Below the pieces are notes generated by a model that searched no databases, had not been told where the DNA came from, and was given only the letters and a program-made list of their open reading frames with translations. The position numbers were made by a program, and so were the translations under genes. Positions 6,687 to 53,840 of a stretch of 64,000 bases of DNA are shown piece after piece. Origin of the DNA: Somniosus microcephalus (lineage: Eukaryota); assembly GCA_052327205.1 (NCBI GenBank), contig CM126224.1, forward strand, positions 28,892,001 to 28,956,000, written 5' to 3'. The stretch's first letter is position 1. Each line of letters starts with the position of its first letter.

Positions 6687-6984
6687 CAGGAAATTCTCTT
6701 TTTACCGGCACCTAAATAACCGGAAATCTCTTTTAACCGGAAAAGTTCAGGAGTAGGTTCAGGTAAGTTTTACTTCATATTAGTGGCCGTGTAACCGGGG
6801 TTCCTGGATCTGTGGCCGTGTAACCGGGGTTCCTGCACCTGTTGCCATGCAACAGGGACGCCTGGATCTGTGGCCGTGTACGGGGCTCTCGTACCTTAGT
6901 AAGTATACCTCTCTGTAATCCGGACTTTTTGATCAACCGGCACCACGCCGGTCCCGACGGTGCCGGATAAAAAAGAGTTTCCTG
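6687..6984. mobile_element. Tc1/mariner/pogo-type MITE with TA TSD
   Basis: TIRs CAGGAAATTCTCTTTTTACCGGCACC and GGTGCCGGATAAAAAAGAGTTTCCTG; TA at 6685-6686 and 6985-6986. Confidence 0.9.
6783..6890. repeat. About 29-bp minisatellite (~4 imperfect copies) inside the TA-MITE
   Basis: Unit gtggccgtgtaaccggggttcctggatct repeated with variation. Confidence 0.85.
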
Positions 6985-7009
6985 TATTTGACAGGTCTAT
7001 CTGTCACAC

Positions 7010-7745: not shown

Positions 7746-7765
7746 ACTATATTAATAAAAAAAAA

Positions 7766-8125
7766 TAGACTTGCATTTATGTAGCGCCTTTCACGACCAC
7801 CGGACATCCCAAAGCGCTTTGCAGCCAATTAAGTACTTTTGGAGTGTAGTCACTGTTGTAATGTGGGAAACGTGGCAGCCAGTTTGCGCACAGCAAGCTC
7901 CCACAAACAGCAATGTGATAATGACCAGATAATCTGTTTTTGTTATGTTAGTTGAGGGATAAATATTGGCCAGGACACCGGGGATAACTCCCCTGCTCTT
8001 CTTTGAAATAGTACCATGGGATCTTTTACGCCCACCTGGAAGAGCAGACGGGGCCTCGGTTTAACGTCTCATCCGAAAGAGTGCAGCACTCCCAAAACAC
8101 TGCACTGAAGTGTCAGCCTAGCTTT
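7766..8125 (-). mobile_element. Deu-domain SINE (SacSINE1/AmnSINE1-related), 5' truncated
   Basis: Reverse-complement match to the full copy at 51897-52509 (aaagatcccatgg..., tggccaatatttatccctca, L2-type tail). Confidence 0.88.
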
Positions 8126-8989
8126 GTGTTTATAGTATAATCATCGAACCTTTTGAAGAGTTCTGGGTTTGCTGATAGATATTTTTAATAGTAGATTAAT
8201 AGTTATTCTCACTGTTATTTATCAATGCATCTAGTTTTATATTACTGTATGCTGGTTGCTCAGCAAGTATGTTTGGTAGCTATGGCTTGAGTTTACTGAA
8301 GCTCCTATTAACTCCAATTCTGTCTTCTCTATCAGAAGCTACGTGACAGTTAATTTTCCCATCGGAATATCCTGTACCTCTGCTTTTCTTTCTCTGTCAT
8401 AAATGCTGTCATTTCAATCATCATCTATCCTAACAACCCCAAGTACATCTCTATTATGTTCTACCTCAATTCTGAACCAGACTACTACATTACAACTTCA
8501 AACCTAATAACAGAAAAGATGTATAATACTTGACACTGTTGCATCTTTTAAAAGCCTTATTACTCCTCAGTTTTCATTGAGTTAGTATTATTTGATCTTG
8601 CACGTTTTTCTTTGGTGTTTCAACACCATCACAAATTGTGCGTCTAATTTCATCTGTGTCAGCTACATCAAATTCTGTTTCCTGCACGAGCTATCTGCTA
8701 AGTACGTTCCTCTCTGTTGGCGTATTTTTTTTAACTTTACAGTACAGATTATTTTCTTCTGGAAGAAGAAACTTGACCTGCCGACCCATAAGATATTTTG
8801 AATAGTTAGTGAATCAGTTACTTTTCACTTGTACCCTTTTGGAAGGAGTGTTTTTCCTGAGAAATGGAGAGTTTGTCACACACGCTGGTTGCCTCAGTTA
8901 ACTATCAGCATCCACCCATAGTTACTCGGATGCAATAGTCATACCTATGTGAAACCGCTGCTGTACTACTGGACTGTTGTGCAGTCAAA

Positions 8990-9075: not shown

Positions 9076-9177
9076 GACGTAGATTGGTTTTGTGTGTTTC
9101 CCCAAGAGAAACAAAGGACTGCCACTTAGATTTTTTTCTGCCTAATGAACCTTAATATCTGCCTACTAAACCTTATT

Positions 9178-9725
9178 AGTGGTCTCCTCTACATTGGGGA
9201 GATCAAACGCAGATTGGGTGACCGCTTTGAGGAACACCTCCGTTCAGTCTGTAAGGGTGACCCCGAGCTTCCGGTCGCCTGTCACTTTAATTCTCCGCTC
9301 CACTCCCACTCTGACCTCACTGTCCTCGGCCTCTTGCGCTGTTCCAATGAAGCTCAACGTAAGCTCGAGGAACAGCACCTCCTCTTTCGATTAGGCACTT
9401 TACAGCCTTCTGGACTCAACATTGAGTTCAACAATTTCAGACCCTAACCTCTGCTCTATTTTTTCAGGCAGCAGTTGTTGATGATTCTGCCATCCCCATT
9501 GCAACATTTAATCACTCCTGCCCTCCACCCTATCCCAGACCCTCCCTTTTGTTCTTTCCTCCCCTCCCCCTTTCCCTGCCTCTGCACCTACTTAAAATCT
9601 GTTACATCTCTAACTTTTTCCAGTTCTGACGTAGGGTCAAAGACCTGAAACGTTAACTCTGTTTCTCTCTCCATGGATGCTGCCTGACCTGCTGCGAGTT
9701 TCCATCATTTTCTGTTGTTATTTTA
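9178..9725 (+). mobile_element. Penelope-like element 3' end: GIY-YIG endonuclease plus pseudo-LTR
   Basis: ORF 9145..9447: LLYIGEIKRRLGDRFEEHLRSV...VACHFNS...RKLEEQHLLFRLGTLQPSGLNIEF, typical PLE GIY-YIG C-terminus, followed by the pLTR. Confidence 0.93.
9622..9658 (+). ncRNA. Minimal type-I hammerhead ribozyme motif of the Penelope pLTR, A9U variant, probably inactive
   Basis: AGTT-CTGACGT-AGG(GTCAAAGA)CCT-GAAACGT-T-AACT: helix I AGUU/AACU, helix II AGG/CCU, palindromic ACGU helix III. Confidence 0.75.
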
Positions 9726-10402
9726 AACCTTATTATCTGTTTCACTTGCTATAATAATTGTCTTAGGTTAACTTCAGTTTGTCGTACAAAACTGTAACTT
9801 TGACTGTGAAAACTCTAGATGAACATGTTGGAAATATAAATGCAAGAAGAAGAGTGCTTTTCATAGTGATTCTAAATACATTACCAGAGAAACACACACA
9901 GATTAGGTGGTCACTCAGTCCTTACTTGACCTAGTAACATATGACAAAGTTGAGCGATTCTTGTACTTCAAACTTTTATCTAATGAGTATAGAGTGTTGA
10001 CAAATATCCCTTAATTATAACTAACTATTGTAAATGGTTTCTTAGTTTAATATCAAATGAATTACAATGAATTAACATTGCATCTATGCTACCAATTTTG
10101 GAGTTCAGGTAATGGATATAGTTGAAGGCACGGTAAATGGCTGCTGTGGATATTTATTTGTGGCAGCTCTATTTGGATCACAATAATGTGGTAGCTTGTT
10201 TTGCAGGTGTATTAGGAAAAGCATAGCAATGTAATTACTGGCCCAATTTAAGACCTGGCTACCAGAGCAAACCTTTATCTTGGGCTTGATTAGAGAACAC
10301 TGCATAAGCCAATTCACAGTGCCACTTGATTTTTGAATTACTTTAGATTCTTCAGTATGCTGATGCTTTTTTTTCCTTCCTTATTTTCATTTAAATATGC
10401 AG

Positions 10403-10887: not shown

Positions 10888-12225
10888 GTGAAAAAGGATA
10901 AGGTGACTGAACACCTCAAAAATTTTCAGTTGATCAGAGAGAGCCAGCATGGATTTGTGAAATGCAGGTCATGCCTGACAAACCTAATTGAATTTTTTGA
11001 GGCGGTGACTAAAGTAGTGGACAGGGGAATGTCTATGGATGTTATTTATATGGACTTCCAGAAGGCATTTGATAAAGTCCAACATAAGAGACCGTTAACT
11101 AAGGTAGAAGCCCATGAAATTGAAGGCAAATTATTGACCTGGTTAGGAAATTGGCTGAGCGGCAGGAGACAGAGAGTAGGGATAATGGGTAGGTACTCAA
11201 ATTGGCAGGAGCTGACTAGTGGTGTCCCACAGGGATCTGTGTTGGGGCCTCAACTATTCACAATATTTATTAATGACTTAGATGATGGCACGGAAAGTCA
11301 TATATCCAAATTTGCCGTTGACACAAAGATAGGTGGAATTGTAGGCAGTGGAGATGAAAGCATAAAATTACAAAGCGATATTGATAGGTGAAGTGAATGG
11401 GCAAAACTGTGTCAAATGGATTTCAGTGTAGGCAAATGTGAGGTCATCCACTTTGGATCTGAAAAGGATAGAACAGGGTACTTTTTAAATGGTAAAAAGC
11501 TAAAAACAGTGGAGGTCCAAAGAGACTTGAGGGTCCAGGTACATCGATCATTAAACCGTCATGAACAGGTACAGAAAATAATCAAAAAGGCTGATGGATG
11601 CTGGCCTTTATATCTAGCGGACTAGAGTACAAGGGGGTAGAAGTTAGGCTGCAGCTATACAAAACCCTGGTTAGACCACACCTGGAGTACTGTGAGCAGT
11701 TCTGGGTATCACACTTTAGGAAGGATATATTGGCCTTGGAGGGAGTGCAGCGTAGGTTTACCAGAATGATACCCAGACTTCAAGGGTTAAGTTATGAGGA
11801 GAGATTACATAAATTAGGGGTGTATTCCCTAGAATTTAGAAGGTTAAGGGGTGAACTGATCAAAGTTTTCAAGATATTAAGGGGAACAAATAGAGTAGAT
11901 AGAGAGAAACTATTTCCGCTGATTGGGGATTCTTGGACAGGGGGGCATAGTCTAAAAATTAGAGCCAGACCATTCAAGAGTGAAATTAGGAAACACTTCT
12001 ACACACAAAGGGTGGTAGAAGTTTGGAACTCTCTTCCACAAACGGCAATTGATGCTAGATCAATTGTTAATTTTAAATCTGAGATTGATAGCTTGTTAAC
12101 CAAAGGTATTAAGGATATGGGCCAAAGGCGAGTATATGGAGTTAGGTTGCAGATCAGCCATGATCTCATTGAATGGCGGAACAGGCTCGAAGGGCTGAAT
12201 GGTCTACTCCTGTTCCTGTGTTCCT
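10888..12225 (+). mobile_element. CR1 (HER1-like) LINE, 5'-truncated, RT to 3' tail
   Basis: ORFs 10888..11391, 11416..11625 and 11598..12227 are consecutive RT and C-terminal blocks; tail atcagccatgatctcattgaatggcgg...ctcctgttcctgtgttcct. Confidence 0.95.
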
Positions 12226-17764: not shown

Positions 17765-18475
17765 TAAAAAATCAAATCAACTTTTATTGTCATTGTTAGT
17801 GCACAAGTGCAGTACAGCGAAATGTAGGCTTGCGGCTCCCGAGAGTGGACATTTAAACATTCAACATACATTTGGCTTGTAATACATTAACATAAACATA
17901 ACCATAATAAAGTGCATTGGCAGATGTGCAGGCTTTAGAGTTTATTTGTGGAGTTCAGTAGGATGACAGCCCTGGGAAAGAAGCTGTTCCAAAATCTGGT
18001 CGTACGGGTGCGAATGCATCTGTAGCATCTCCCAGATGGCAGGAGGGCAAACAGACTGTGGCTGGGGTGGGTAGGGTCTTTGATGATGGACCGTGACCTC
18101 CATAAACAGCGTTTCTGGTATATGTGCTCTATGGTCGGTAGCTGGGTGCCGGTAATGTGTTGGGCAGTTTTGACTACCCGCTGCAGGGCTTTCCGGTCAT
18201 AGTAGCTACAGCTGCCATACCATACTGTGGTACAGTTTGTCAGGATGCTCTCTATTGTGCAGCGGTAAAAGTTAGAGAGGATCAGGGGTGACAGGTTACA
18301 TCCCTTCAGCCTCCTTAGGAAATATAGGCGCTGCTGGGCCGCCTTCACCAGAGAGGAGGTATTGAGGGACCAGGAGAGGTCTTCCGTGATGTGGACTCCG
18401 AGGAACTTAAAGCTGTCCACCCTTTCCACCACAGCCCCATTGATGTGGATGGGGGTGTGACTTCCGCCTTTTGCA
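17765..18475 (-). mobile_element. Rex1/Babar LINE 3' fragment with open C-terminal ORF
   Basis: ORF 17935..18567: VERVDSFKFLGVHITEDLSWSLNT, AQQRLYFLRRLK, FYRCTIESILT, DRKALQRVV, DPTHPSHSLFALLPSGR. Minus-strand tail atgacaataaaagttgatttgat. Confidence 0.9.
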
Positions 18476-19962
18476 CGGCTTGATTCAGACTGAGTGAATG
18501 ACCAGAGCAACAGATGGAATCGGTGGCAAGAGAACGGAGCTTTTGATGGATGGGGGGGGGGAAGCAACAGCTTTGGTCTTTCCGTTGTTCAATTGGGGGA
18601 AATTTTCACTCATCCACAACCTAATGGCAGTCAGGCAGTTTGACAGCACAGAGGTGGTTGTGGGGCCAGGGAAGAGGTAAAGAGTTCGACCTGGGTGTTG
18701 CCAGAATACATGTGGATACCAAATGAAACCAGATTAGCCGAGACGCTTGCTGATTCCCTTGTCTGAATATTCTATTCATATTGATTGTCCAGACTCAACC
18801 ACTAAAGAATAGAATCATGGCGAGGAACCAAAAGGCAGCCGCTGTTCATGGCACTGCACAATATCTTGCGTTGCCATCATCAGTAGAAATGGTTATGAGA
18901 AAGGGGGAAAAAAATTATGATGTTCTTTGTCTGCCCTCCATATATAGACCTACTTAGGTTGTGTATTGTAATCCAGTGATGCCATAAAGCCAAAATAATA
19001 GTTGGTATTCCTTTTACTGACTGAAACAGCAATCTCTTAACATTGTCTTAACTATACCCTAACATTAGTGTAATATTCAAGGATGATGATACAATATTTC
19101 AAAAATAATCTCTCCTTTGATTTAGTGCTTGTAGAAGTTGCATTAAAATTTAATTTTTTTAACATTTTTTCAAACTACACTAAAATGTGTACATTCCAAT
19201 AACCTTCACATGCACTGTAAATAGGGCACATTGTCCCTTTATTAGCATTCTATTACTTATCCTGCTCTATTAATACAATTTATGGTATTTTTGCTAAATT
19301 TAGTGAAAGATTACGCTGCCTTTGCAGAAAACAGCCATGATCTTAGCCCATTAAAACATGCCCTCAAGCATCCAAACCATTTGTTAGTTCCTCCCTTTCC
19401 CCTCGTTGCAGAGACGAGGAGTTAATGATATTGTGTTTTCTATTAACAATCTCTCCTTCAGACAATTGCTTGCAACTTCAGTAACTGCCAAGTTCGTTAG
19501 TAGATTGCGGCAAGCTTCATCAAATGGTTTCCCTCACCAGGCAGTCCATTGAATCGTGGGATTGCTCCAGCTAACTTCAAAAGTTTCATCCTTTTCACTT
19601 TAGATTTTGTTGTCCTAGAAGTTTGTATCAAATTATAGTGTGTAGATATTTCAGCATTAAGTGGATTCCTTATAACTATTAGACTTGTTCTATGGAATTG
19701 AAGATGTGTTGTCTTTGCCATTTTTGATTTTAGTTTCACTGCCACAACTTGAGAAATCTGACAGATTTGAACATCATTTAACATTTAATTATAGTCAATT
19801 ATTGTTTGAATTTTTTTTAGTTCCATATTTTTAGTGACAATATTTGCAAGTGGGCAAAACTATGGCAGATAAAATTCAAGGTCTTAGACATTGGAGGAAA
19901 AACTGGGATCAGATGTAAGGAATAATGCTGAGACTGAAAGAGATCTGGGAGTGACAGTAGTA

Positions 19963-20314
19963 CAGGAAAAGTTCTGATATCCGGCACCGACGGGACCGGC
20001 GTGTTGCCGATCTCTCAAAAGTGCCGGACATGCAAAGTCAATGTTGAAGCATACGGAGATGAAAATCTCCTTATTTGACAACAAACACTGTTGCTCGACA
20101 ACAAACACTGTTGCTCAGCAACAGCTCGTAAACACTCGGCCCGTACCTTGGAGCGTCTCTGAAGCTGTTGCTAAGCTACAAAGACGATTTCCAGAGCCTG
20201 CCTGTTAACAGAATGCTAGGAGAAGAAAAAAAAACTAACTAAAACGGCTGCTGATTTCTGCCGTTAGAGCAAAGTTTCCGGCCATACAACCTCTGGATAA
20301 ACCAAAGTTTCCTG
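19963..20314. mobile_element. Tc1/mariner/pogo-type MITE with TA TSD, related to 6687-6984
   Basis: TA|CAGGAAAAGTTCTGATATCCGGCACC...CTGGATAAACCAAAGTTTCCTG|TA. Shares ccggcaccg.cgggaccggcgtg with the 6.7 kb element; internal 20-bp tandem repeat at ~20078-20125. Confidence 0.85.
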
Positions 20315-20465
20315 TATCAGCATGTCCAGTCATTGCAGAGCAGCAATTAACAAAGCAACTGGACTGGAGTAGAGTGCCAATTCAGTAGAGTATAAGTTTG
20401 AAGTAACAACAGAAAATGCTGGAAAAACTCAGCAGGCCAGGCAACATCTGTGGAGAGAGAAACAG

Positions 20466-20501
20466 AGTCAACGTTTCAGGTCGAAACCCTTTGTCAAGAC
20501 T
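20466..20501 (-). ncRNA. Minimal hammerhead ribozyme, U3:A8 compensatory core
   Basis: Minus strand AGUC-UUGACAA-AGG(GUUUCGA)CCU-GAAACGU-U-GACU. Confidence 0.75.
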
Positions 20502-20815
20502 GAAAAAGCACCGGAAATGAAACAGATTAAAAGGCCAGTTTGGGGGCTGGGAGTGAACAAGAGAGAAGTGAAGAGACATTAAGAGGTAAGGGAAACTGAA
20601 AGTAATGAAGATGAACAAAGTTGAAGAGCTAAACGGCGATCCCGTCGAAGAGAAGAGCAGAACTTCTTCAAGGTAGGCATTCCTAGAAGAGGTGTGGCAG
20701 TGAACCAAACACTAGTACGACAGCAAAATACTGCAGATGCTGGAAATCCAAAATAACAACAGAAAATGCCGGAAAAACTCAGCAGGCCAGGCAACATCCG
20801 TGGAGAGAGAAATAG

Positions 20816-20851
20816 AGTCAACGTTTCAGGTCGAAACCCTTTGCCAAGACT
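20816..20851 (-). ncRNA. Second minimal hammerhead copy (U3:A8 plus A6G)
   Basis: Minus strand AGUC-UUGGCAA-AGG(GUUUCGA)CCU-GAAACGU-U-GACU. Confidence 0.7.
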
Positions 20852-21429
20852 GAAAAAGCACAGGAAATGAAACAGATTAAAAGGCCAGTTTGAAGTCATC
20901 ATTGCTAACGCTATATAGTTCTCTGATCAGGTTGTATCATGAATACTGTGTTTAGTTCTAGTCACTGAGGCAGTAAGGCAACATCTGAGCATGAGAAGTG
21001 GTGCAGAGAAGGTTCAAGAAGCTGATACCTAATATTGGAGGACTAACTTATAAAGAAAGTTTAGGAAAACTTGTACTCGAACACTGAATGGCGATGAAGG
21101 AGAGGTGACCTAAGATATTAAAGATAAGATATAAACAGGTTAATGTTGAGCACTATTTCAGTTGACTGTTGGATAGGGGATTAGATACAAACTGGTAAAA
21201 GTTAAGTTCAGGACTGATGTCAAGAAGCACTTTTTAACACAAGGAGTAGTTAATATTGGAAGCGTCTTTCAGGTAGGGTAGTGGAGGCAGAAAGCCTGGA
21301 GTGATTCAAGGGGCAGTTAAACTCTGCTGGGGAGGAAATTGTAGGTTTCTGTTGAAGGAGGAGCTCGATGGGTCAAATGGGCTTCCCTCATTTGTACTTT
21401 GTTTCTGCTTATCAAGAAATGAGATGTTT

Positions 21430-23723: not shown

Positions 23724-24404
23724 ATTGTTTGCCTTTTTTGTGCCTTTTTCAACTTGCACTTCCAAGGAATTACATTTTTAAACCTGTTACAAGTTTAGGA
23801 TCTTGCCTTACATTTTCTCTAAGCACAACGATGCCAGCCACTCCCGTTAGCATTCTGAGCATCTTATGTTTTGGGGTATGCCCGTACTGCCCAATATCTA
23901 ACTACACAATAGTGTAACCCAGAGTTGTAACTGGATTTTACTATGATATAGTTAAAAATTGAGCAATATGGGTGCACCCATAGTAACAATAGTACCCCCT
24001 TGTCACCCAAACCGGATATTTGTGTCTTTCCCACTTGCCCCAATCTGCTTCTACAGTTTTTTAAAGGCCACTTGAGAAAACACTTAGCAAGGAAAAGCCA
24101 AATACAAATTATTAAGCTGTTTTATCTCACAGGCAGCCAATTAACATACATAGTAACAGTTGAGTTTGGACTCGCTTAATTCAATCAGTACAACTTGTCT
24201 TCACGTAACAACACAAAATAATGAACACGCTACACTACCCATATCAGTGGGTCTTCTTGCTTGACTTAAACAAAATAATTTCTAACTGCTCTCCTGCATT
24301 TCAACCTTCTCGCAGCCTTTGCTGCCCTTGCAGCTTCCTGTTTATTTAATAAAAAATCTGACTGCCTGTGTGTCTTTTTCTTTAACTCTGTGTTCACAGT
24401 CTGC

Positions 24405-24710
24405 ATTTTTGGAGATGGTATCTTTCAGATAAAACATGAAACCGAAGTCCTCTCTGCCTATTGAGGTGGATGGATAAGATCTCATGACACTATTTGAAGA
24501 AGAGTTCTCCGACTGTCCTGGCCATTACTCCTCTCTCAGCCAACATCATTTAACACAGATAACCTGATCATTCGTCTCATTTGTTGCCTTCGAACCTTGC
24601 TGTGTGCTCCATTTGCCTGTATGACAACAGTGACTATACTTCATTGGATGTGAAGTGTTGAGGAACACCCTGAGGACATGATAAGATATTCTATAAATGA
24701 AAGTTCCTCT
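24405..24710 (+). mobile_element. Degenerate Deu-domain SINE
   Basis: aaaccgaagtcc, ggtggatggataagatctcatgacactatttgaagaagag, caacagtgactatacttca. Confidence 0.75.
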
Positions 24711-28282: not shown

Positions 28283-28720
28283 GTGTGTCAGCCGTGGTAG
28301 CACTCTTGCCTTTGAGTCAGAAGACTGCGGGTTTAAGTCCTGCTCAGGAGACTTGAGCACAAAATCTAGGCTGACACTCCAGTGCAATACTAAGGGAGTT
28401 TTTCGGATGAGGTTAAACCGAGGCCCCGTCTCCCCCCTCGGGTGGACATAAAAGATCCCATGGCACTATTTTGAAGAAGAGCAGGGGAGTTCTCCCTGGT
28501 GTCCTGGCCAATATTTATCCCTCAATCAACATCACTAAAATATATCTGGTCATTATCACATTGCTGTTTGTGCAACCTTGCTGTGCACAAATTGGCTGCC
28601 ACATTTCCTATATTGCAACAGTGTCTACACTTCAAAGTACATTGGCTGTAAAGTGCTTTGGGACGTCCTGAGATTGTGAAAGATGCTATATAAATGCATG
28701 TTTTTCTTTATTTCTTTCTT
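28283..28720 (+). mobile_element. Deu-domain tRNA-SINE (SacSINE1-like)
   Basis: tRNA-like head (gtcagccgtggtagcactc...gggtttaagtcc), Deu core aaaccgaggcccc...aaagatcccatggcactattttgaagaagagcagggg, L2 tail. Confidence 0.9.
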
Positions 28721-34130: not shown

Positions 34131-34577
34131 ATAGGAAGGACTATACCAAGTTTGGAGGGAAGTTCTGAAAAATAAGTTTAAAAATTAAAACATTTATTTC
34201 AGTTTATTTTCGTAACACTGCTGCTGCATTTGAAAAAGAAGGAAATTAGTTTAGTATTTTCTTAATTTTTTTTTGTCTTTCTCTAAAAATCTACATTATA
34301 ACCACGTGCTTAGTGAAGACATTACATGTAGTGACTTACTTATACATGTAATTGTGAGGGGACAATTTTATTTACCTACCTGCATGGTAATGAAAATAAT
34401 ATTTATTCATTTTCCAGGAACTAATAAAAAAAACAATTACTTCACTGTCTCTTGGGTGATCTGTTACAAAATTCTTTCCATGCAGATCACCATCCCTCCG
34501 CCTAGCAACAGCATAATCTCTGACTCACAGTGAGCAACATCACAGCATATGAAAAACTTTCATATAATCGATATCAA

Positions 34578-35012
34578 GAAAGAACTTCCATTTATATAGC
34601 GCCTTTCGTGATTTCAGGATGTCGCAAAGCGCTTTGCAGCCAATTAAGTACTTTTGAGGTATAGTCACTGTAGTAATATAGGAAACGTGGAAGCCCAATT
34701 GCACACAACAAGATCCCTCAAACAGCAATGAAATAAATGAGCAGATCATCTGTTTTTTTAGGTGTTTGTTGATGGATGAAAATCTTGGCACACACACTGA
34801 CAAAACTCCCCTGTTCTTCAAATAGTGCTATGGGATCTTTTCGGTCCACCTAAGAGGGGGCAGAGGAGGCCTCTGTTTAACATGTCATCTGAAAGACGGC
34901 ACCTCCAGCAGTGCACCACTTCCTCAGTATTGCACTGAAATGCTAACTTTAATTATGTGCTCAAGTCTCTGGAGTGGGGCTTGGGAGTGCTACCTCTGAG
35001 CCAAGCCTGATA
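34578..35012 (-). mobile_element. Deu-domain tRNA-SINE
   Basis: Reverse-complement match to 51897-52509. Confidence 0.88.
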
Positions 35013-51896: not shown

Positions 51897-52509
51897 GTGT
51901 GTCAGCTGTGGCTCAATGGTTAGCACTCTCACCTCTGAGTCAGAGGTAGTGGGTCCAAAGACTTAAGCACAAAAATCCAGGCTGACACCCCAGTGCAGTG
52001 CTGAGGGCATGCTGCACTGTCGTAGGCGCCATCTTTCGGATGAGATGTTAAACCGAGGCCCCGTCTGCCTTCTCAGGTGGACGTAAAAGATCCCATGGCA
52101 CTATTTCGAAGGAGAGCAGGGGAGTTATCCCCGGTATCCTGGCCAGTATTTACCCCTCAATCAACATCACAAAAACAGATTATCTGCTCATTATCACATT
52201 GCTGTTTGTGGGAGCTTGCTGTGCGCAAATTGGCTGCCGCGTTTCCTACATTACAACAGTGACTACGCTTCAAAAGTACTTAATTGGCTGTAAAGCGCTT
52301 TGGAACGTCCTGAGGTCATGAAAGATGCTATATAAATGCAAGCAATGTTCCTGTTAAGCTGCATGGCTGTGCAGCGGTTTGGAGGTCCCGCGCAGGCCAC
52401 TCTGGCTTTAAAATGGAAAAACCATGCATGGAAATTTGAATGGGACGCGCACCTTAAAAAAAAAAAAAAAAAAAAAATTAGCAGGAACATTGATTGCAAG
52501 TCTTTCTTT
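51897..52509 (+). mobile_element. Near full-length Deu-domain tRNA-SINE (SacSINE1-like) with a hAT MITE in its tail
   Basis: A-box-like tggctcaatgg, Deu core, L2-derived 3' end gctatataaatgcaag, (tctt)n tail resuming at 52501. Confidence 0.9.
52343..52492. mobile_element. 150-bp hAT-type MITE
   Basis: TIRs CAATGTTCCTGTTAA and TTAGCAGGAACATTG; 8-bp TSD AATGCAAG / ATTGCAAG (7/8). Confidence 0.85.
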
Positions 52510-52654
52510 AATACAGCTGTAAAATTTTTGATCTGATATAACCATATGAGACAGAGACTAAATACAAAACACAATATAGCTGTCATGTAAACAGATAGAA
52601 TATTTAATCTGTGTGCGAAGTATAATGATGGCATTTTAAGTGTTATATATGCAA

Positions 52655-53840
52655 AGGTGAGGTGAGAGTGACTGCCCTTGACATCAAGGCAGCATTTGAT
52701 CGAGTGTGGCATCAAGGAGCCCTAGCAAAACTGAAGTCAATGGGAATCAAGGGGAAAACTCTCCATTGGTTGGAATCATACCTAGCACAAAGGAAGTTGG
52801 CTGTGGTTGTTGGAGGTCATTCATCTCAATCACATGACATCACTGCAGGAGTTCCTCAGGGCAGTGTCCAAGGCCCAACCATCTTCAGCTGTTTCATCAA
52901 TGACCTTCCCTCCATCATAAGGTCAGAAGTGGGGATGTTCGCTGATGATTGCACACTGTTCAGCACCATTCGAGACTCGTCAGATACTGACTCAGTCCGT
53001 GTCCATATGCAACAAGACCTGGACAACATTCAGACTTGAGCTGACAAGTGGCAAGTAACATTCGCACCACACAAGTGCCAGGCAATGACCATCTCCAACA
53101 AGCGAGACTCTAACCATCTCCCCTTGACATTCAGTGGCATTACCATTGCTGAATCCCCCACTATCAACATCCTGGGGGTTACCATTGATCAGAAACTGAA
53201 CTGGACCAGCTATATAAATACTGTGGCTACAAGAGCAGGCCAGAGGCTGGGAATTATGCGGCGAGTGTCTCACCACCTGACTCCCCAAAGCCTTTCCACC
53301 ATCTACAAGGCACAAGTCAGGAGTGTGATGGAATACTCTCCACTTGCCTGGATGAGTGCAGCTCCAACAACACTCGAGAAGCTCGACACCATTCAGGATA
53401 AAGCAGCCCGCTTGATTGGCACTCCATCCACCACCTTCAACATTCACTCCCTCCACCACCGGCGCACTGTGGCTGCAGTGTGTACCATCTACAAGATGCA
53501 CTGTAGCAACTCGCCAAAGCTCCTTCAACAGCACCTTCCAAACCCGCGACCTCTACCACTTAGAAGGACAAGGGCAGCAGATGCATGGGAACATCACCAC
53601 CTACAAGTTCCCCTCCAAGCCACACACCATCCTGACTTGGACCTGTATCGCCGTTCCTTCACTGTCGCTGGGCCAAATTCCTGGAACTCCTTTCCTAACA
53701 GCATTGTGGGTGTGCCTACACCATATGGACTGCAGCGGTTCAAGAAGGCGGCTCACCACCATCTTCTCAAGGGCAATTAGGGATGGGCACTAAATGCAGG
53801 TCTAGCCAGCGACGCCCACATCCCATCAATGAATAGAATA
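52655..53840 (+). mobile_element. Young CR1-group non-LTR retrotransposon (DRVWH-type RT, distinct from the HER1-type CR1), 5'-truncated
   Basis: ORFs 52662..53039 (LDIKAAFDRVWH, AGVPQGSVQGP, FINDL, FADD) and 53085..53780 (ILGVTIDQKLNW, YKAQVRSVMEY) are in the same frame with one stop between them. Confidence 0.92.

Follow-up and report, generated by a model that had tools for sequence, protein, structure and literature searches.

What kind of element carries two hammerhead motifs exactly 350 nt apart at this locus, and by which route was it copied into the genome? A sequence-only reading of the 64,000-nucleotide stretch of Somniosus microcephalus DNA analysed here (the window, in whose positions all features are given) had taken a short insert for a non-autonomous retrozyme or mini-Penelope whose transcript could release a 350-nt monomer and possibly a circle. 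The insert is a non-autonomous Penelope in kind, and retrozyme status is not supported for the present copy. The explanation that we favor, held with as much doubt as assent, is that it is a fossil copy of a member of a short, internally deleted, non-autonomous Penelope-like family, and that it was copied from uncut RNA.

The insert (20405–20886, 482 bp) lies within an old CR1 fragment on the plus strand, of which 20317–20394 remains on the left and 20897–21288 on the right. Direct repeats of 142 nt each (20401–20542 and 20751–20892) are 96% identical and spaced by exactly 350. Inside the insert, 20405–20536 and 20755–20886 align without gaps and differ at 5 of 132 positions (20420, 20449, 20463, 20494 and 20512), a Jukes-Cantor distance of 3.9%. 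The layout is that of a partial tandem with direct pseudo-LTRs (pLTRs), amounting to 1.38 units of 350 nt; TRF does not report it as a tandem repeat, either with default parameters or with those of Li et al.

The sequence AGTTTGAAGT is found on the plus strand both at 20395–20404, as CR1 sequence at the 3′ end of the element, and at 20887–20896, an exact match of 10 nt that extends no further. Of 9029 control positions, 5 gave an end-anchored 10-mer match by chance. In the right duplicate, its leading 6 nt (20887–20892) belong to the element as well, being identical to 20537–20542, and form a 6-nt microhomology at the element's 5′ junction; the other 4 nt would match by chance at 488 of the 9029 positions. 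The case for a true target duplication rests on the full 10-mer match together with the restored CR1. When the insert and one duplicate are taken out in silico, the empty site aligns unbroken, in pairwise comparison and BLAST, to the CR1 copies of the window at 11623–12055 (E 5e-11) and 48797–48374. It is this alignment that identifies the left flank, while the right flank also shares 46% of 56 amino acids with a window CR1 ORF and 58–59% DNA identity over about 400 nt with window CR1 copies. The exact 10-mer and the continuity of CR1 once the insert is removed bear out the claim of a duplication-bounded insertion, and the claim of two direct repeats with a period of exactly 350 holds as well; the duplication itself is exact over 10 nt, with the reservation that 6 nt of its right copy double as element microhomology. 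The label CR1 is based on the likeness of the window ORFs to CR1-type RT and not on a named database match.

The old CR1 also contains another insertion, at 19961–20316, which is about 356 bp long, has 22-nt terminal inverted repeats (73% complementary) and is flanked by TA; presumably it is a MITE of the Tc1/mariner/pogo type. One of its ends recurs at 6919–6986 (78% identical), and a 20-nt tandem duplication lies inside it (20077–20123).

Read on the minus strand, the two repeats of the insert are Penelope pLTRs. The 3′ pLTR occupies 20405–20542 and shares 102 of 124 aligned nt (82% identity) with the pLTR of a 5′-truncated Penelope at 9167–9735 on the plus strand; the 5′ pLTR (20755–20886) is the start of the truncated second unit, and element homology runs on to 20892 through the microhomology. 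The copy at 9167–9735, which is not part of the insert, has a GIY-YIG end followed by a 3′ UTR and a single pLTR, with a duplication of 12 nt. Its open GIY-YIG C-terminus of 89 codons is 72% identical to a Leucoraja erinacea protein, and its ESM Atlas features match GIY-YIG clusters at 0.95. The 3′ pLTR of the insert ends 65 nt beyond the predicted hammerhead cut, at a position common within 5 nt to two other window copies; the end of the 9167–9735 copy lies within those 5 nt. Of the four terminal pLTRs known from the window, three therefore stop at nearly one place, to within about 5 nt, and the fourth continues into a 35-nt tail. We infer that the position is the RT start site; the pLTR ends of the window match the two-start-site pattern of PMC11167929. 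The 10-nt duplication is in line with the 12 nt of the 9167–9735 copy and with the 8–10-bp cases described in PMC3846280. With a pLTR so close to that of a GIY-YIG copy, a similar duplication length and a common 3′ end, the proposal of one insertion of a non-autonomous mini-Penelope, made by Penelope machinery, is supported.

Two older pLTRs lie back to back on opposite strands at 1349–1580, an inverted arrangement typical of Penelope. Their hammerheads are degraded (about 1402–1446 on the minus strand and 1445–1490 on the plus strand), the plus copy bears a 35-nt tail, and a convincing target duplication was not found there.

The spacer between the pLTRs had been described as non-coding. This is correct in that coding for RT or GIY-YIG is absent from the insert, and tblastn with Penelope RT/GIY-YIG fragments matches 9178–9444 instead. 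Nevertheless, the spacer retains a minus-strand ATG at 20680 and, from there on, 31 codons with homology to a peptide derived from a shark repeat, and the idea that the spacer is anonymous non-coding DNA is rejected on these codons and on a Penelope tail. The order of parts on the minus strand is pLTR, tail, leader, ORF start, large gap, 3′-UTR-like end and pLTR. The tail, an optional pLTR extension of about 35 nt, occupies 20720–20754: the stretch 20755–20720 aligns to 1544–1580, where an older pLTR copy extends about 35 nt beyond the end that the others share, and none of 500 shuffles scores as well. PLE tails of 30–40 nt are described in PMC8557442, PMC3846280 and PMC11167929. A 5′ leader of 39 nt (20681–20719), defined by its position between tail and ATG, has no significant match in the flank of the 1492 copy (150 of 500 shuffles as good). 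Within it, 20682–20700 on the minus strand reads as a pyrimidine tract followed by AG, two bases ahead of the ATG and, judged by eye only, splice-acceptor-like; the horn-shark gene-model match starts at the glycine just before that methionine, as if an exon began there. The tract may mark an intron of a Penelope 5′ leader.

The remnant reading frame (20579–20680, minus strand) has 33 codons, the first 31 of which (20588–20680) are identical at 24 of 31 residues, ungapped, to residues 73–103 of XP_067869940.1 from the horn shark Heterodontus francisci. The horn-shark peptide is shark repeat-derived; its frame is open for about 75 codons, about 45 beyond the stop of the insert, and its homology to the insert ends after codon 31. 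With this shark and the skate Leucoraja erinacea as their sources, the named protein matches point to a chondrichthyan host. Because they follow directly on pLTR and tail, codons 1–31 are probably the N-terminus of a Penelope ORF. When the frame that crosses the deletion junction (about 20580–20588) was searched against 1.84 billion proteins, eight matches came back, comprising five repetitive, chance-like ones, two pLTR-like translations and the horn-shark peptide, and none of the eight covers the junction region. Full-length RT-EN proteins beginning with the remnant peptide were not found at E up to 10 among 53 candidates, nor, with the horn-shark peptide as query, at E up to 1 among 19 candidates; the remnant peptide gave no usable Atlas feature match and no meaningful PDB match, and six proteins gave no Pfam family. 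The pyrimidine-rich tract at 20543–20587 (minus strand), defined by position only, probably derives from the end of the parental 3′ UTR, although 409 of 500 shuffles align as well to the 3′ UTR of the 9178 copy. The 64-kb window contains no second copy of the spacer or of the junction. Stop-free minus-strand frames also run through the pLTRs at 20579–20926 (115 codons) and 20382–20711 (109 codons), probably as a by-product of a U-rich, A-poor strand.

A descriptor scan of both strands, with a minimum of 3 bp set for helices I and II, places minimal type-I hammerheads on the minus strand at 20466–20501 and 20816–20851. In both, helix I is short, an unpaired base precedes helix II, which closes with G-U, and a palindromic ACGU stands in place of helix III. 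The downstream motif, with its predicted cut at 20470/20469, has an intact U3-A8 core, helices I and II of 4 bp each and a UUCG loop, and the minimum-energy structure of its 36 nt is that of helices I and II, at −6.3 kcal/mol. The upstream motif, with its predicted cut at 20820/20819, has a U3-A8 core altered by A6G at 20844, and only one of the two hammerheads matches the strict core pattern. The residue numbers follow hammerhead convention. A relaxed core pattern finds three matches in the window where 0.34 are expected, a count reached in 1 of 100 shuffles, the third match being the motif at 9626–9653 in the 9167–9735 copy. Rfam gives no hammerhead at its gathering score in the whole window, and at E up to 10 it gives two chance snoRNA matches and no hammerhead in 20300–21000. 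Both motifs thus lie where they had been proposed, whereas the cores are U3-A8 and not C3-G8, and one of them carries A6G.

The hammerhead of the 9167–9735 copy has a C3-G8 core with A9U, and its helix I pair and helix II loop differ from those of the insert. Relative to this comparator (near 9620), the core pair (U3-A8) and a helix I pair (C-G for U-A) of the insert both covary. Since the cores differ as C3-G8 and U3-A8, the two belong to different subfamilies, and the 9167–9735 copy represents a sister subfamily of the insert. That the 9178 family was the parent of the insert is rejected because hammerhead and 3′ UTR differ. Its suggested role in mobilizing the insert fares only partly better: it is a relative, but not clearly the mobilizer, given the different core pair and helix I.

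A minimal PLE hammerhead type of the same layout is known, with U3-A8 covariation in Schistosoma and with dimers that cleave poorly (PMC4209133). In a mutational scan of a type III hammerhead, every single or double change tried in the CUGA region left activity low, the G3-C8 swap excepted (PMC9901934); a direct activity measurement of A6G was not found in the literature. Judging from this general statement and from hammerhead mutagenesis at large, A6G probably impairs the upstream core here, and it may be decay that followed the insertion. The hammerheads of the insert are expected to be pLTR motifs inherited from a U3-A8 subfamily, weak and dependent on dimer formation and protein.

Could the present copy nevertheless release a 350-nt monomer in cis? 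When the pairs of the double hammerhead are built, each core acts on the cut site of its partner, so that the damaged upstream core would act at 20470/20469. The cis-dimer fold is nested and possible, but its −73.7 kcal/mol is about 19 kcal/mol less favorable than the −92.5 kcal/mol that the transcript reaches without constraint. As an isolated dimer the two motifs reach −9.1 kcal/mol versus a minimum of −19.1 kcal/mol; this does not single out the insert, because the dimer of the 9620 comparator also lies above its minimum (−8.5 versus −25.7). The hypothetical cut-to-cut monomer (20470–20819, minus strand; 44% GC, 40% U) is poorly structured. Its linear fold has a z of +1.62, with 95 of 100 dinucleotide shuffles as good, and its circular fold reaches −53.2 kcal/mol versus a shuffle mean of −61.7 (z +1.8; 100 of 100 shuffles as good) with 42% of bases paired. 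By these models the present copy should not release a 350-nt monomer and would make at most one cut, because the A6G upstream core would have to cut the downstream site. The cis release of a 350-nt monomer or circle, as envisaged for this copy from sequence inspection, is therefore not upheld, in view of the A6G core, the cost of the cis dimer and the poorly structured monomer.

The boundaries of the insert bear on its template. The 5′ end lies 67–73 nt before the first cut site, and the 3′ end lies 65 nt after the second. Since the insert thus reaches beyond both cut sites, a doubly cut linear monomer is rejected as template. The template was uncut RNA or a circle, or a template jump was involved; the geometry does not favor a circle, because every ordinary Penelope partial tandem has it. 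Uncut RNA is preferred because of the results for an anole element in PMC11167929, where hammerhead mutants insert equally well and uncut RNA is the main substrate. The hammerhead of that element cleaves only with protein, and no RNA-seq read ends at the cut site. Its RT starts internally and needs RNA downstream of the start (PMC11167929); in the mini-unit, about 167 nt follow the RT start. The anole enzyme, our comparator for mechanism, is of the Poseidon clade, which may not be the clade of the insert.

A route by which the insert may have arisen can be proposed in four steps. In the 350-nt unit, pLTR, tail and leader would be followed by the first 31 codons and these, without anything between, by the end of the 3′ UTR, and a master locus with this unit in tandem or partial tandem would have been transcribed. 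An RT/GIY-YIG protein acting in trans, by analogy with the anole enzyme, would then bind the RNA just downstream of the pLTR, nick AT-rich DNA and begin cDNA at an internal site that lies 65 nt beyond the hammerhead cut. As the anatomy shows, the copied 1.38 units extend through both hammerhead sites, are joined to the target by the 6-nt microhomology and are flanked by a 10-nt duplication in the old CR1; the template was most likely uncut RNA. Today the repeats are 3.9% apart, and the upstream hammerhead carries A6G. Speaking for this explanation, the parts of the insert map to Penelope anatomy, all in order, the unit length comes close to the 363-bp mean of the chondrichthyan families in bioRxiv 10.64898/2026.07.22.740005, other short non-autonomous Penelope families exist, and in a window taken at random one would sooner expect a copy from a multi-copy family than a unique rearrangement. 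Speaking against it are the single copy in the window, the junction uncovered by protein matches, the failure to find a full-length RT-EN protein that begins with the remnant peptide, the derivation of the mechanism from a Poseidon-clade enzyme, and the 3′-UTR origin of 20543–20587, which lacks statistical support.

The resemblance to Penelope-like elements is extensive. As described in PMC3846280 and by Frangieh et al. 2024 (PMC11167929), these elements show direct pLTRs in partial tandem, a 30–40-nt tail, 8–12-nt duplications and microhomology at the 5′ junction, as does the insert, and their hammerheads are minimal motifs with an extra base before helix II, palindromic ACGU and a U3-A8 variant. 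Unlike them, the insert is without RT and GIY-YIG coding, its hammerheads lie 350 nt apart rather than about 3 kb, its helix II closes with G-U instead of the conserved G10.1-C11.1, and one core is mutated. Four marks of a PLE derivative are present, namely partial-tandem pLTRs, a minimal hammerhead on the sense strand, a tail and a duplication of about 8–12 nt; of the single ORF with RT and GIY-YIG that marks an autonomous PLE, a 33-codon remnant is all that is left.

Short non-autonomous PLEs are on record from Chlamydomonas (PMC8557442) and Heliconius (PMC6685494). Like MRC1 and the Chlamys derivatives (PMC8557442) and the Heliconius families (PMC6685494), the insert is short, forms pLTRs and has a 3′ end similar to that of autonomous relatives. 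Those families are described as non-coding, and the insert is so too, though it keeps the ORF start, by which its origin through internal deletion becomes visible. It differs from the MRC1 and Heliconius families in clade and host and in being known as one copy in 64 kb. A described shark Penelope or a matching element was not found in the literature, and the supplements searched yielded no shark entries.

Metazoan non-LTR retrozymes (Cervera and de la Peña 2020, PMC7229834) share with the insert one type-I hammerhead per unit and Penelope ancestry. The 350-nt unit, the GC content of 44% and the 10-nt duplication fall within the ranges given there (150–450 nt typical, GC below 50%, duplication longer than 4 nt). 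In contrast, the 350-nt monomer is not predicted to form a highly self-paired circle, and the insert has a 4-bp helix I with no helix III stem or loop, whereas validated coral and axolotl retrozymes have a canonical type-I hammerhead with a 6-bp helix I and loop-loop contacts (PMC7229834). Minimal motifs are also accepted by Li, Clavereau and Pollet 2026 (bioRxiv 10.64898/2026.07.22.740005), by whose definition a retrozyme has at least two consecutive full units, each with a complete hammerhead; the insert has 1.38 units, with one of its two cores intact. The same study reports Penelope-related retrozyme families in one chondrichthyan, with a mean consensus of 363 bp, and cleavage in only one of nine Xenopus dimers. 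Under that scheme the locus could rank no higher than a 'monomer' of one of these families. The name retrozyme, proposed for the insert on inspection, is not supported for this copy by two published criteria, at least two full tandem units and a highly self-paired circle.

Alternatively, an autonomous Penelope in partial tandem may have lost its ORF once, through an RT template jump at insertion or a later deletion, the 350-nt period being an accident of the breakpoints and the unit never mobile. We regard this as somewhat unlikely. The layout is exactly that of pLTR, ORF start, gap, 3′ UTR and pLTR that such a deletion would leave; the window holds a single copy of only 1.38 units, missed by TRF; and from rotifers single Penelope derivatives are known that have 10-bp duplications and have lost internal sequence through microhomology (PMC3846280). 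However, two uncommon events would have to meet at one locus, a full-length partial tandem and a near-complete loss of the ORF sparing both ends, and the unit size agrees with the chondrichthyan families of bioRxiv 10.64898/2026.07.22.740005. Neither point is decisive.

A true retrozyme, in which paired hammerheads cut out a 350-nt monomer that is ligated into a circle and copied 1.38 times by a Penelope RT, appears quite unlikely to us. An insert that extends past both cut sites could come from a circle and could not come from a doubly cut linear monomer, but uncut tandem RNA would leave such ends too, as it does wherever Penelope inserts in partial tandem. Size, GC below 50% and a long duplication fit PMC7229834, yet the monomer is less structured than its shuffles, against the 'highly self-paired' circles of that paper. 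Core and helix I covary relative to the 9620 hammerhead, a sign that the fold may have been under selection in the parent subfamily; topology permits the double-hammerhead pairing, and A6G may have arisen after insertion. Against these points, dimers of minimal PLE-type hammerheads cleave poorly and need protein (PMC4209133 and PMC11167929), eight of nine Xenopus dimers did not cleave (bioRxiv 10.64898/2026.07.22.740005), CUGA-region mutants other than the G3-C8 swap have low activity in a different hammerhead (PMC9901934), and this locus carries A6G.

Decidedly doubtful is also the reading of the insert as the footprint of a shark mini-Penelope family midway between Penelope and retrozyme, in which a protein-assisted double-hammerhead cut would yield a small circle that the RT copied for more than one turn. 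That such a unit had shrunk to the 350 nt needed in cis, namely the pLTR with its U3-A8 hammerhead, the RT start, the tail and a protein-binding region at the ORF start, is no less doubtful. Barely credible is the view that two independent pLTR fragments or a local duplication came to lie 350 nt apart with a 10-nt match by chance: six of the ten duplicated bases are element sequence and the remaining 4-mer is common (488/9029), but the empty site gives continuous CR1, the full 10-mer is rare (5/9029), the repeats are 96% identical with common subfamily-specific changes, and the spacer is Penelope sequence in the expected order.

As it stands, the locus is of little consequence, being a single decayed derivative of Penelope in a shark genome with many repeats. 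Non-autonomous Penelopes, minimal hammerheads of the U3-A8 type and Penelope-derived retrozymes in a cartilaginous fish are already in print. The locus may serve as a worked example, in which the deletion origin can be read from the kept ORF start and the boundaries show that the cDNA crossed both hammerhead sites. If it belonged to a family with a common junction and multimer arrays, it would provide a structural link from autonomous Penelopes to retrozymes beyond pLTR similarity, and likewise a 350-nt test substrate for what Penelope hammerheads do. Were the unit midway between the two, it would be a compact natural substrate for asking whether Penelope partial tandems arise from circular templates.

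Elsewhere in the window, no host gene that would fix a direction of transcription was found: the 150 stop-free frames of at least 62 aa (from 179 listed) gave two Pfam matches, both to retroelements. Scans of bacterial and archaeal genomes for carry-over of host DNA found nothing. On the minus strand, 17935–18588 holds a frame of 217 codons resembling the C-terminus of LINE ORF2 (Pfam PF09004, ALKBH8_N, E 4.5e-15), by its look a fairly young non-CR1 LINE. On the plus strand, 52629–53780 is a LINE RT fragment (Pfam RVT_1, E 5.3e-21) of 136 and 246 codons in one frame with a single stop between them. SINE-like interspersed repeats of about 370 bp, 66–86% identical, occur at least five times, at 7754–8129, 28349–28716, 34570–34973, 51959–52342 and 24402–24705.
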